Shown here: one piece after another, positions 23,587 to 28,750 of the stretch | How positions within the stretch are numbered: the stretch's first letter is position 1 | Layout: each line of letters begins with the position of its first letter | Notes under the pieces: generated by a model | Told to the model about the DNA's origin: nothing | Databases searched by the model: none | Seen by the model: only the letters and a program-made list of their open reading frames with translations | Source: a virus | DNA: 29,565 nucleotides | Strand: one strand, 5' to 3' | Virus genome (UHGV): UHGV-0175179 | Program-made: the position numbers and the translations under genes

Positions 23587-25134
23587 ATGTCACAGGCCGT
23601 TATTACAAAAGTATTTTCAGAATGGAAAGCCCGGCAGGCAATTGATAATCAGCCCGTCACGCTGGATGAATTTATTTTCGCTTATATTCCGGGGCTGGAT
23701 ACTGATAAGCCGATTGATAATACCGAGACAATACCCACAGCGGATAAAATTGTTGATCGCCTGCCGGTAAGTAAAACCGGCGTTGTGAATGAAAATTCTG
23801 TCGTTTATTCCGTCACTCTGGGTGCGGATGTGGGCGATTATGATTTCAACTGGATCGGACTGGCAAATAAAGCCACCGGTACACTGGCGATGATTATTCA
23901 CGCCCCGACCCAGCGCAAAATCAAAAATACGAACGGCCAGCAGGGAAACGTGCTGGTTCGTTCCATGCTGATGGAATACAGCGGAGCCAGGGAAGCAACA
24001 GAAATTACCACCCCGGCAGAGACATGGCAGATTGATTTTACTGCCCGCCTGGCGGCAATGGATGAGCGCCAGCGCCGCGAAAATATCGATCTGTATGGCG
24101 CAGCGGCATTTTTTGATTCGGGTTACCTGGTCGCAAAGTCCGGCAATCAGTTTTTTGTCACAAAGGGGGCGGGATACGTTGCCGGGTTGCGTGCTGAGCT
24201 GCCCGCAGACCTGAACATCACCGCATCCGCCAGGCCAACAAAGGTCTGGCTTGATGTCTGCTGGACAGGGACGTTAACGAGTGAATGGGCAGTACAGAGC
24301 AACATTACCGTTGCGGCAGATCTTGCCGATTATGTGCTGGGCGGAGTGCAGCATTATGTCTTTGCACTCGCCAGTATTGATGCCGCTGGCAATATCACAG
24401 ATTTACGCCCGAAAGGCACGCTGAATGACCAGGCGGCCAGCGATGCGCTAAAAAAGCATGAGCAATCCAGAAATCATCCTGATGCATCAACCAGCGAAAA
24501 AGGTTTTGTACAGTTAAGCAGTGCAACGGACAGCGATTCCGAAAAACTGGCCGCAACGCCCGCAGCGGTTAAGCAGGTTAACGAGAACGCCAATAAAAGA
24601 CAGCTGGCGAACCCCCTGTTAACTGCGCTTGCCGATCTTGTCACGAAAAAGGACATGTTTCCGTGGTTTACCGGGAAAAATACGGTTGCCATGAGCGCTT
24701 TGACAGAGTTTGCGCGTGAATTGCTAAGTAAAGGGGATGTGGCATCCGTTCTCAGGCATCTGACGCTGGGAGATGCTGCAACAAAAGATGTTGGTGTCAT
24801 GCCAGGACAGGTATTACCCGCCGCCGCTTTTACCGCGCATCTGTCTGGCTCGGGAATGTGTAAGTTTCCTGTGCAGGCAACATCCGGGGCGGTTATTAAT
24901 CTGATTTTTATGTGGGGTGTCACCAGTACCCCGCCAGGATCGTCAGGTGGTTACAATTTCCACACGGCATTTCCTTATGCCTGCCTGATGGCGATGGGGT
25001 GTCGCGGGGCAGATGGTACGAATGCCAGCATGAACGTCAGGGCGCATAACAACACAACAATGATTATTCAGAACTGGGCGCCAGTGGGTTCCGGTTACTG
25101 GGAAGAATGCATCTGGTTTGCAATTGGTTACTGA
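23587..25134 (+). CDS. Tail fibre protein
   Basis: 515 aa. Contains the conserved fibre motif HPDASTSEKGFVQLSSATDSDSEKLAATPAAVKQV. Followed by a tail fibre assembly gene. G+C lower than the surrounding tail genes. Confidence 0.8.
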   Translation: MSQAVITKVFSEWKARQAIDNQPVTLDEFIFAYIPGLDTDKPIDNTETIPTADKIVDRLPVSKTGVVNENSVVYSVTLGADVGDYDFNWIGLANKATGTLAMIIHAPTQRKIKNTNGQQGNVLVRSMLMEYSGAREATEITTPAETWQIDFTARLAAMDERQRRENIDLYGAAAFFDSGYLVAKSGNQFFVTKGAGYVAGLRAELPADLNITASARPTKVWLDVCWTGTLTSEWAVQSNITVAADLADYVLGGVQHYVFALASIDAAGNITDLRPKGTLNDQAASDALKKHEQSRNHPDASTSEKGFVQLSSATDSDSEKLAATPAAVKQVNENANKRQLANPLLTALADLVTKKDMFPWFTGKNTVAMSALTEFARELLSKGDVASVLRHLTLGDAATKDVGVMPGQVLPAAAFTAHLSGSGMCKFPVQATSGAVINLIFMWGVTSTPPGSSGGYNFHTAFPYACLMAMGCRGADGTNASMNVRAHNNTTMIIQNWAPVGSGYWEECIWFAIGY

Positions 25135-25138
25135 GGTG

Positions 25139-25582
25139 ATGATGAGTGATAAATATCGTTTTTCCGGAAATATTTTTTATCCATATTCCAGTAAAGCTGA
25201 TTTTGATGCTGCCGGAACCTGGCCGAAATCCGGCGTGGATGTAGATTTGAATACTTATCTGACTTTTATTCAGCCGCCTCCATATGGAAAGCTGCTTGGT
25301 ACAGATAAAACAGGCGCACCATGCTGGATTGATATTCCGCCATTAACGCGCGAACAACTGATTACCCAGGCTAAATATGAGAAAAGTCGCCGTCTGGACG
25401 AAATTAATACATTTATCAATGACAGGCAGTGGCCGGGTAAAGCAGTGCTGGGTCGTCTTACTGACGACGAAAAAGAACTGTATGGCAAAGCCCTGGATTA
25501 CCTTGATGAGCTTAGCGCTTTAGATCCGCAGGATATACCAGACAACTGGCCGGAATTTGAAGGTTTTAACAATGTGGCGTAA
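25139..25582 (+). CDS. Tail fibre assembly protein (Tfa / gpG-like)
   Basis: C-terminal signature DRQWPGKA...EKELYGKALDYLDELSALDPQDIPDNWPE typical of Tfa chaperones. Low G+C. Start at tandem ATGs 25139/25142. Confidence 0.75.
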   Translation: MMSDKYRFSGNIFYPYSSKADFDAAGTWPKSGVDVDLNTYLTFIQPPPYGKLLGTDKTGAPCWIDIPPLTREQLITQAKYEKSRRLDEINTFINDRQWPGKAVLGRLTDDEKELYGKALDYLDELSALDPQDIPDNWPEFEGFNNVA

Positions 25583-26300
25583 TTCAGTTATTAAAATTGC
25601 CGATGATATGTCGGCTTTATCCTGCTCAGTTATTCCGGCGCATCCCTGGGTTTACGGTCTGGGACAGAACACCGATTCAGGCGGTTATCTCAGTCCGGCC
25701 AATGCGCTGGGATACCTTGCTAAAAAGCTGTTATCCGGTGGCGGTAGCGGTAGCGGTGATGTCATCGTCATGATGGTGGCGGAAAATACCCACGACGCTT
25801 TTATGCAGGGACTGAATAAACTGTCCACCGTATTTCCGGCCCCGGTATTTACGCAGGTAAGCCGTATGGCCGCAGCCGCCGCAGAACTCAGCACGGTAAA
25901 AATGCAGTTGCCGGTTAAAGCCGATGTATTGCCAGCCAGTACGCCGTTATCAGTCTCAACCAACCGGCTGGCGCTGAATGCCCAGCGTGTTGCCGCCGCG
26001 CAGCTGGCCGCCGCAGTCAGTACCACCACAACAGATCTAAAAAACCAGGTGACGGGATTTATTCAGGAGCGGGCCGGTTTGCTGGCCTCACTCAGCCAGG
26101 GACTGGATGAACTGAAAGCCGCCAGCGCGAATATTTTTTCATTCAGCTACAGCGGGAATTATGCCGTTGCCGCCGCTGAATTACTGAAAGGCATCCCGCA
26201 AACAACGGCAGTGCATACCGCCGCGATGATGTTTATCGGGGATTCGTTATCTGACTTAGGGAAGATGCTACATGAGCCAGACCGCACTACTCGCGCTTGA
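25572..26300 (+). CDS. Hypothetical protein (242 aa); tail-associated or cargo
   Basis: ATG at 25572 with GAAGG RBS, overlapping the Tfa stop. Gly/Ser linker GGGSGSG and an Ala-rich helical C-terminal half. No motif recognised. Confidence 0.4.
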   Translation: MWRNSVIKIADDMSALSCSVIPAHPWVYGLGQNTDSGGYLSPANALGYLAKKLLSGGGSGSGDVIVMMVAENTHDAFMQGLNKLSTVFPAPVFTQVSRMAAAAAELSTVKMQLPVKADVLPASTPLSVSTNRLALNAQRVAAAQLAAAVSTTTTDLKNQVTGFIQERAGLLASLSQGLDELKAASANIFSFSYSGNYAVAAAELLKGIPQTTAVHTAAMMFIGDSLSDLGKMLHEPDRTTRA

Positions 26301-26814
26301 TGGTGAAGGGATCGCCATGCAGAACATGCTGGTTTCACCTTCCATGCAGTTTCAGGAGAAAGACCAGTCGGGCCAGACATCGAGCACGGCCAATGCTGAA
26401 CAGGGTATCAAGGCCAAAGAGCTGCGCGTGTCGGGTCTGGTGACATTCGACGACGAAGCCGTCTTACAGCGGCTTTTCCAGCTGGCATCCGCGACCGAAG
26501 CCAGCGGCGCACTGAAAAAGTACCGCGTAGCCAATGCGACGGCGACGGCTATCAACCTTCGTGAAGCCACGTTTACCGGTCAGATTGATGCCGTACCGCA
26601 GGAGGATCGCCTTGCCTGGCAGGTAAGTTTCACCCTGCGTGAAAAAGGCAGCGTCCCGGAAAAACGACAGGCCCGAAAAGGCAACGCGACGGCCAGCACC
26701 AAGCAAACAGGGGTAAAGGGCGCGGGTCCGGCTGCCGGTGCTGATGAGCCAGCCGACAAAATGAGCTGGTTTGAAGAAAAGGTCTTAAAGCCGGTCAACG
26801 ATGCGCTGGGGTAA
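26272..26814 (+). CDS. Hypothetical protein (180 aa); tail-associated or cargo
   Basis: Overlaps the upstream ORF by 29 nt. No motif recognised. Confidence 0.4.
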   Translation: MSQTALLALDGEGIAMQNMLVSPSMQFQEKDQSGQTSSTANAEQGIKAKELRVSGLVTFDDEAVLQRLFQLASATEASGALKKYRVANATATAINLREATFTGQIDAVPQEDRLAWQVSFTLREKGSVPEKRQARKGNATASTKQTGVKGAGPAAGADEPADKMSWFEEKVLKPVNDALG

Positions 26815-26821
26815 TTAAACG

Positions 26822-28546
26822 ATGAAACCAATTAAACGCCTGTACCTTTCCTCTGATCCGGTCCATCTGATTGACTGCAATATCGTGCTGGAGCTGAACG
26901 CGTGCGGTCGGGGGTTTATTACGGCAGGGACAGAGACAGATTACACCGGCAAGATGGTGCGGATCGATGTTGGCTATGATGGTCTGGTCCTGCGCTGGTT
27001 TACCGGGTACGTTGAACGGTCACAGCCTGCTGATAATGGAACATGCCGGTTATTCGTGCGTGAGCTGGTTGGCATCTTTGACAAATTGTGGCCGTGTTCT
27101 TTCCAGCATCCAACGCTGCGCCAGATTACTGACTGGATAAGTGAGCAAAGCGGGCTTACCGTCACAACGCCGGTCGGCGCTGCTTATGCAGATAAACCGA
27201 TCCCCCACTTTACGCATAGCGGCACGGGCTATCAGCTTCTTGCCAGTCTGGGCCGTGCATTTTCAGTGACGGATTATCTTTGGTATCAGCTGCCGGACGG
27301 GGATGTCTTCGTCGGCGCTGCGGAGCACAGTCTTTTTGCGGGTAAACCAGTGGAGATCCCGCACGAATTTAGCCAGGAATCGGCAGGCGGAAATTCAATG
27401 GTTGTGCCAATGATTCAGAGCCTGCGACCGGGTGCGGAAGTGAACGGCCAGCGGCTGAACCAGGTTCGGCTAAATAACGACGACATGGCAATCACATGGC
27501 AGCCCCGCAACAAAGCCAACGGCCAGCCATTGCAAAAATCACCGATTCAGCGGCAGATTGAAAACGCATTCCCGGAGCTGGCAAGCGGCCTGCATCTTCC
27601 AAAGTTCGCCAGGGTGGAAGCACCAAGCGAGGATGTTTCCGGGGGGAATATTGCCGATCCATTCCGCCCGCGCTACGCCGTGGATCTCCAGCTGCTTGAC
27701 GAAGACGGCAAGCCAGCCGCAAATACGCCGGTTTATTCTGCCGTTCCGCTACCTGTGCCAATGGCGGGCAGCGAGTCGGGAATGTTCCAGTTTCCGCCCC
27801 CTGGCACGCTGGTTGAAATTGGGTTCACTGAGGGGCGGCAGGATAAGCCCTTTGTGCGCCAGATTATGGCGGAGGGTCATAACCTGCCAGCGGTTAAACC
27901 CGGCGAGCAGTTGCAGCAACAGCGCGATGGTGTATCGCAGCGCGTGACGGTTGCCGGAGACTGGGAACGCCAGACGGACCAGACAATCCGCGAAAACTCC
28001 ATGATGCGCGAAGTCACCACCGACGAAGAGATCCGCAAAGTGGTTGTCCGTGAAACTACGGTCCAGGCAACGGATAAAACAACCGTGCTTGGCACGGCCA
28101 CACTTCTGGCCGGGGCGGTGGTCCATATCAGCGAGGGTGATTACAGTATCGGCACATCCGGCAACCTGACAGTAACCTGCAGCAAGGACAATTCCGTCAG
28201 TGTTGGCCGGAACGTAAAACGGGACGTCGCGGGCGATGTTACAGACGACGTGAAAGGGAATGTTACGTCAAACGTCAGCGGCGCACTGACTGAAAAAATC
28301 AGCGGCATCCGCCGAAGTGTGGCCCAGGCGCAACAGCTGATTGCCCCGGTGGTAAAACTGGGAAGCGAAGAGATTAACGTCCTGACACTACTCACCGACA
28401 CCCTGGACGTGGTGAGGGAGCTGGCAGAGACTGCCGCGTCACATACTCACCCCAATACAGGGGCCAGCGGGCAGGCTGCACAGTTCACCGCAACGGCCAC
28501 TAAAACCGGCACATTAAAAAGCAAATACGGTCCCCTGATAGCCTGA
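26822..28546 (+). CDS. Baseplate central spike protein (gpV / gp5-like OB fold with C-terminal beta-helix)
   Basis: FPPPGTLVEIGFTEGRQDKPFV matches the gpV/gp5 OB-fold signature. C-terminal repeats (GDVTDDVKGNVTSNVSG) and HTHPNTG resemble spike beta-helix and apex His motifs. Confidence 0.6.
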   Translation: MKPIKRLYLSSDPVHLIDCNIVLELNACGRGFITAGTETDYTGKMVRIDVGYDGLVLRWFTGYVERSQPADNGTCRLFVRELVGIFDKLWPCSFQHPTLRQITDWISEQSGLTVTTPVGAAYADKPIPHFTHSGTGYQLLASLGRAFSVTDYLWYQLPDGDVFVGAAEHSLFAGKPVEIPHEFSQESAGGNSMVVPMIQSLRPGAEVNGQRLNQVRLNNDDMAITWQPRNKANGQPLQKSPIQRQIENAFPELASGLHLPKFARVEAPSEDVSGGNIADPFRPRYAVDLQLLDEDGKPAANTPVYSAVPLPVPMAGSESGMFQFPPPGTLVEIGFTEGRQDKPFVRQIMAEGHNLPAVKPGEQLQQQRDGVSQRVTVAGDWERQTDQTIRENSMMREVTTDEEIRKVVVRETTVQATDKTTVLGTATLLAGAVVHISEGDYSIGTSGNLTVTCSKDNSVSVGRNVKRDVAGDVTDDVKGNVTSNVSGALTEKISGIRRSVAQAQQLIAPVVKLGSEEINVLTLLTDTLDVVRELAETAASHTHPNTGASGQAAQFTATATKTGTLKSKYGPLIA

Positions 28547-28750
28547 CAAAAAGCGGTATAATCGCACACCTCACCAGACACCACAGAACGCGCCACAGCA
28601 GGCGCAAGCATTAAAGGTCGCCACCGTGCGGCCTTTCTTTCGTTCGTTCAACAGCGGCCCACAGCGTAAGCGACAGCTGGCAGACGGAAGCGGATCCAGG
28701 ACGGAAACGGCGCTACACCGCACCCGCCTGCGCAGTTTGGATCATAAAAA

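Follow-up and report, generated by a model that had tools for sequence, protein, structure and literature searches.

Gene order and boundaries in the tail region

We analyzed a window of 29,565 nucleotides (the whole stretch of DNA), an HP1-subgroup Peduoviridae prophage with ~95% identity to Salmonella phage SI7. Between its tail fibre assembly gene (Tfa) and its spike gene lie two open reading frames, ORF1 and ORF2 (Table 1). The ORF listing and direct reading confirmed what a preliminary description had proposed for them, i.e., frames of 242 and 180 aa overlapping by 29 nt; they also place the ORF1 stop codon, TGA, at 26298-26300, an 11-nt overlap between Tfa and ORF1, and GGGAAG upstream of the ORF2 ATG. 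The hub-spike gene is the next gene after ORF2. Across 240 related loci, the ORF1/ORF2 junction is either an overlap of 4-29 nt or a gap of 8-11 nt, and the sole terminator found in the tail region of the window stands after the spike gene. Because both frames match protein families and have hundreds of full-length homologues sharing the start Met, they are, by sequence comparison, real genes and not chance ORFs; the same type of evidence identifies them as the homologues of HP1 orf33 (ORF1) and orf34 (ORF2).

Table 1 Features of the region from the fibre assembly gene to the end of the late tail operon
Feature	Position	Strand	Evidence or remark
Tfa (tail fibre assembly gene)	25118..25582	+	Pfam Caudo_TAP, E 6.7e-20
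ORF1 ribosome-binding site, GAAGG	25559..25563	+	8 nt 5' of ATG 25572, direct reading
ORF1, 242 aa, HP1 orf33 homologue, putative accessory minor virion/baseplate protein	25572..26300	+	phrog_1677, E 4.6e-78
GGGSGSG loop, ORF1 residues 56-62	25737..25757	+	between helix 42-55 and strand 61-71
Ala-rich helical insert, ORF1 residues 91-183	25842..26120	+	AlphaFold model; helices 91-108, 129-148, 153-183
ORF1/ORF2 overlap, 29 nt	26272..26300	+	consistent with translational coupling
ORF2, 180 aa, HP1 orf34 homologue, predicted tube initiator	26272..26814	+	Pfam PF25759, E 4.8e-53; phrog_1398, E 1e-70
Predicted tube-fold core, ORF2 residues 1-125	26272..26646	+	conserved hairpin loop ~residues 25-49 (KDQSGQTSST..EQGIKAKELR)
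Gly/Ala/Lys-rich linker, predicted disordered, ORF2 residues 127-162	26650..26757	+	pLDDT below 50
C-terminal amphipathic helix, ORF2 residues 166-179, SWFEEKVLKPVNDALG	26767..26808	+	conserved; predicted
Hub-spike fusion, 574 aa, homologue of HP1 orf35	26822..28546	+	phrog_2258, E 1e-276
Terminator-like hairpin, T-rich tail	28613..28636	+	3' of spike gene; ends late tail operon

The fibre tip and Tfa (24597-25571) are an exchangeable host-range cassette. Similarity to SI7 is absent from this stretch, with flanks on either side being 93-95% identical, and its GC content is 0.46-0.50 in contrast to 0.52-0.60 in the backbone. Identity to SI7 restarts exactly at the ORF1 ATG, past the swapped cassette.

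On the other side of the gene pair, phrog_196 (hub, residues 25-146), Phage_base_V and Gp5_C match the hub-spike protein weakly, as do VgrG and gp5 in the PDB. The HP1 homologue of this protein, orf35, is the equivalent of P2 gpD plus gpV (PMC10612066 Table S1, footnote d), and some relatives encode hub and spike as two separate genes. P2 baseplate proteins returned no phmmer match against the six-frame translation of the window, and no further gpU, gpX, gpD or gpV homologue was found within it.

A predicted tube fold in ORF2

ORF2 is a full-length match to the HP1 orf34 family (phrog_1398; PF25759, 'HP1 ORF34 baseplate complex protein'), scoring 179.9 bits (gathering cut-off, 27) over residues 7-180 of 180, and all 51 aligned ORF2 homologues match PF25759 too. 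HP1 orf34 is of equal size, occupies the same slot between orf33 and orf35, and is ~45% identical to ORF2 over the core, with no difference of substance. The earlier statement that neither protein has an assignable motif consequently survives for ORF1, which has no Pfam family, but not for ORF2. NCBIfam gave no match to either protein, and single-sequence and profile searches of the PDB with both found nothing.

The AlphaFold model of ORF2 has a core with pLDDT above 90, in which a beta-sandwich, one helix and a long hairpin make up a predicted tail-tube fold, and its top structural matches are tube-initiator and ripcord proteins. The linker after the core varies in length and sequence among homologues. 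The motif of the C-terminal helix is conserved in ORF1-positive and ORF1-negative clades alike; we considered this helix as a docking site for ORF1 and rejected it because the motif is equally conserved where ORF1 is missing.

The closest functional comparison is with P2 gpU and pyocin R2 PA0626 (tube initiator, 'ripcord'; PF06995), the genes of which likewise adjoin the hub gene. P2 gpU is similar in size (159 aa vs 180 aa for ORF2) and carries a C-terminal helix after its tube domain, as is predicted for ORF2. In P2, six gpU sit on three gpD, and the gpU C-terminal helix contacts the gpJ/gpI wedge triplex (bioRxiv 10.64898/2026.09.14.750843). Sequence similarity of ORF2 to gpU and PA0626 is, however, not detectable. 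PF06995 (Phage_P2_GpU) matched none of the 51 ORF2 homologues even at E <= 10, and hhalign of ORF2 against P2 gpU returned a probability of 0.1, so that, as far as sequence can tell, ORF2 is an analogue or a very distant homologue of gpU outside the gpU sequence family. An independent HHpred analysis tentatively linked the orf34 homologue of phage ACA1 to gpU (PF06995; PMC10612066 Table S1). ORF2 also differs in gene order, following the fibre and Tfa genes instead of the tape measure gene as in the gpU/PA0626 pattern, and in length past the tube core, where it has only ~55 residues and lacks the long ripcord domain of the pyocin protein (PA0626, 285 aa).

Profiles of ORF1 and ORF2 aligned by hhalign against P2 gpX, U, D, V, W, J, I and G gave no match. 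These null results and those from phmmer are in keeping with the literature, in which the tail modules of HP1 and P2 are considered too diverged for pairwise detection and the HP1-type one is an ancient paralogue of that found in P2 and pyocin (PMC10612066).

Since the tube fold is common to tube, Dit and Hcp proteins, the label 'initiator' rests on gene position and on the elimination of other candidates. ORF2 occurs at each of the HP1-subgroup loci examined, without exception directly 5' of the hub or hub-spike gene, and it probably makes up the ring with which the tail tube begins. The ACA1 homologue of ORF2, gp47, escaped detection by mass spectrometry of virions, at a low sensitivity that yielded only 4 spectra even for the tube protein (PMC10612066 Table S2).

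Family and distribution of ORF1 and virion detection of a homologue

ORF1 is a full-length member of phrog_1677, the HP1 orf33 family, with a tblastn match to HP1 orf33 itself (E 8e-9). Members occupying the same position include K139 orf37, phiO18P gp44 and ACA1 gp46. Homologues were found in HP1, HP2, K139, Kappa, ESSI-2, YenM_324 and CFP3, and by HMM in phiO18P, phi3 and ACA2; our search of the literature on K139 orf37 and vB_YenM_324 found nothing usable. The alignment has 15 invariant columns. All homologues begin with MW and keep the motifs HPW, YLSP.NA and KM.LP, and the K139 and Aeromonas forms have 45-70 additional N-terminal residues.

The predicted fold of ORF1 consists of a small alpha/beta core and a long helical hairpin. 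The GGGSGSG stretch noted previously is real and differs in length and sequence among homologues; the helical Ala-rich part, previously placed at the C-terminus, is central in the model. The loop of residues 109-128 (nt 25896-25955) is conserved, yet modeled with low confidence, with K110, M111, P114 and R132 being invariant or nearly so in the alignment. Invariant ORF1 residues map to low-confidence regions of the model, and such conserved, low-confidence segments are typical of docking segments.

Searches beyond the family returned little. The ORF1 model has no recognisable structural relative, Foldseek against BFVD gave no match at E <= 0.001, a LysM domain or fold was not found in it, and hhalign of its profile against every other HP1-type tail-module family gave no match. 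An exhaustive HMMER search of 1.84 billion cluster representatives recovered only 278 clusters, all of 210-313 aa, with no informative domain fusions among them.

The long Ala-rich hairpin and the conserved flexible segments might suit an internal or ejected tail protein (for instance one that pairs with the tape measure protein, or one that plugs the hub or tube lumen and is released on contraction) instead of a peripheral adaptor. The low virion abundance of the ACA1 homologue and the adjoining initiator and hub genes fit such a protein as well. We nevertheless regard it as improbable: ORF1 resembles neither tape measure nor known ejection proteins, its sequence contains no hydrophobic membrane-insertion segments, and clades without ORF1 retain a similar tape measure protein and hub.

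ORF1 is the gene immediately 5' of ORF2 in 254 of 256 HMM matches. At 127 loci there is no ORF1 match at E <= 1 and the fibre gene abuts ORF2, and whole marine clades (yong1, PV94 and C5a) lack it. Being missing from whole clades, ORF1 cannot be a universal core part. Where it is present, its evolution tracks the baseplate backbone and not the exchangeable fibre-tip/Tfa cassette, as measured by sequence identity: among 849 pairs of loci in which ORF2 identity is 85% or more, the median identity of Tfa was 0.40, as opposed to 0.91 (ORF1), 0.93 (J), 0.92 (I) and 0.94 (hub), and no pair had ORF1 below 60%.

We also considered whether ORF1 is tied to a fused as opposed to a split hub-spike. All ORF1-negative clusters are split, but two ORF1-positive clusters are split too, and this candidate was rejected.

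Direct evidence on the family comes from purified ACA1 virions, in which the orf33 homologue gp46 was detected by mass spectrometry with 2 spectra and 6% coverage (PMC10612066 Table S2). Per kDa, its spectral count was 0.09, compared with 0.08 for gpW, 0.06 for gpV and 0.05 for gpJ (PMC10612066 Table S2). The ORF1 HMM matches the ACA2 copy, which is 100% identical to ACA1 gp46, with E 1.6e-7. ACA1 is a distant relative, and gp46 in its virions is the sole experimental datum on the orf33 family.

A signal of only 2 spectra could be carry-over, and ORF1 could then be a morphogenetic factor mostly absent from finished virions, either a second fibre attachment or assembly chaperone or a catalyst of hub-initiator assembly, with ORF2 still the tube initiator. 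ORF1 directly follows Tfa and starts over the Tfa stop codon, its presence follows that of Tfa (both at 171 loci, neither at 126, ORF1 only at 55, Tfa only at 2), and clades without it build the same baseplate. Several observations make this reading unlikely, although less so than that of an ejected protein. gp46 was detected in virions at a level like that of accepted baseplate proteins; ORF1 co-evolves with J, I and the hub and not with Tfa, the SI7 recombination junction falling between Tfa and ORF1; and 55 loci have ORF1 without detectable Tfa, including Aeromonas-type loci in which the gene directly 5' of ORF1 encodes a fibre of about 900-990 aa. The link to Tfa holds at the level of clades and is inseparable from phylogeny. 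We rejected ORF1 as a Tfa-linked factor on the same grounds, i.e., a strong but clade-level correlation, the Tfa-less loci and no co-evolution with Tfa.

Baseplate genes or cargo

The preliminary description had left two options for the gene pair, baseplate parts (tube initiator or hub-like) or cargo at the counterpart of the P2 Z/fun locus. In the latter case, one or both genes would be accessory, as a moron, exclusion or lysogenic-conversion gene. The position after Tfa is indeed like the P2 G to Z/fun junction, and ORF1, absent from some clades, contains no known domain. A location downstream of the fibre assembly gene is, however, all that ORF1 and ORF2 share with P2 Z/fun, which is non-essential cargo following gene G. 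Z/fun is non-structural, runs in the reverse orientation and is preceded by a terminator, whereas ORF1 and ORF2 are conserved, oriented like the genes around them, and probably both structural and coupled in translation. They overlap their neighbours, the interval from Tfa to the spike gene contains no promoter or terminator, their GC equals that of the backbone, and they match no PADLOC anti-phage defence model at E <= 0.01. ORF2, with its predicted tube fold, occurs throughout the HP1 subgroup; ORF1 is not variable among close relatives, and its family is virion-associated in ACA1. Synteny extends from Haemophilus HP1 to Vibrio K139, Aeromonas phiO18P and Pseudomonas phi3, and in HP1-type genomes it is the equivalents of U and D, not those of Z/fun, that fill this slot (PMC10612066 Table S1). 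Cargo is thus largely refuted and, in our estimate, very improbable. The baseplate option gained support from the predicted tube fold of ORF2, its place next to the hub-spike gene with no other gpU-like gene in the window, and the orf33 homologue in ACA1 virions. ORF1 and ORF2 are probably ordinary and conserved genes for the tail baseplate in an HP1-like prophage.

More specifically, we propose, with a probability of roughly 65%, that the two are hub-module genes of an HP1-type contractile-tail baseplate, ORF2 as the tube initiator and ORF1 as a low-copy accessory baseplate protein. ORF1, ORF2 and the hub-spike gene would be transcribed together in the late tail operon. A ring of six ORF2 tube-fold domains would sit on the trimeric hub-spike, adapting the threefold hub to the sixfold tube and nucleating tube polymerisation around the tape measure protein, and the flexible linker and C-terminal helix of ORF2 would reach the gpJ/gpI-like wedge as in P2 gpU. 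ORF1 would be made in step with ORF2 at low copy, and its docking elements would be the invariant N-terminal Met-Trp and the loop of residues 109-128. We infer that it binds where hub, initiator and wedge meet, and that it may be a lineage-specific adaptor or 'glue' there.

A LysM glue like P2 gpX is not detectable in HP1-type genomes, nor in this one, and the glue role would therefore be vacant here. The likeness of ORF1 to P2 gpX and pyocin PA0627 (LysM 'glue') is one of positional logic only, both being small proteins that the baseplate has in addition to its hub, initiator, sheath initiator and wedge. P2 gpX has 67 aa and ORF1 242 aa, ORF1 has no LysM domain or structural match, and it is missing from some HP1-type clades. 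As a tentative extension of the model, which we consider possible but would not favor, ORF1 might be a baseplate adaptor of a previously unseen fold that replaces the LysM glue and docks on the tube initiator and wedge through its N terminus and flexible loop. If so, presence of ORF1 (enteric, Pasteurellaceae, Aeromonas and K139 lineages) as opposed to absence (yong1, PV94 and C5a lineages) would mark two architectures of one minimal baseplate.

No solved structure of an HP1-type baseplate was found. The orf33 family is the one component of the module without a counterpart in P2, pyocin, Mu or T4, and, being dispensable in some clades, it offers a defined target for cryo-EM or genetics. Its role is a modest question and holds no surprise.

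The evidence favors calling ORF2 "tube initiator (gpU-like)" and ORF1 "minor baseplate protein, orf33 family". In E. coli prophages, RefSeq names ORF1, ORF2 and the hub-spike gene "hypothetical protein", and ORF2 homologues are named "adenine glycosylase" or "DNA-binding protein" in several phage records.

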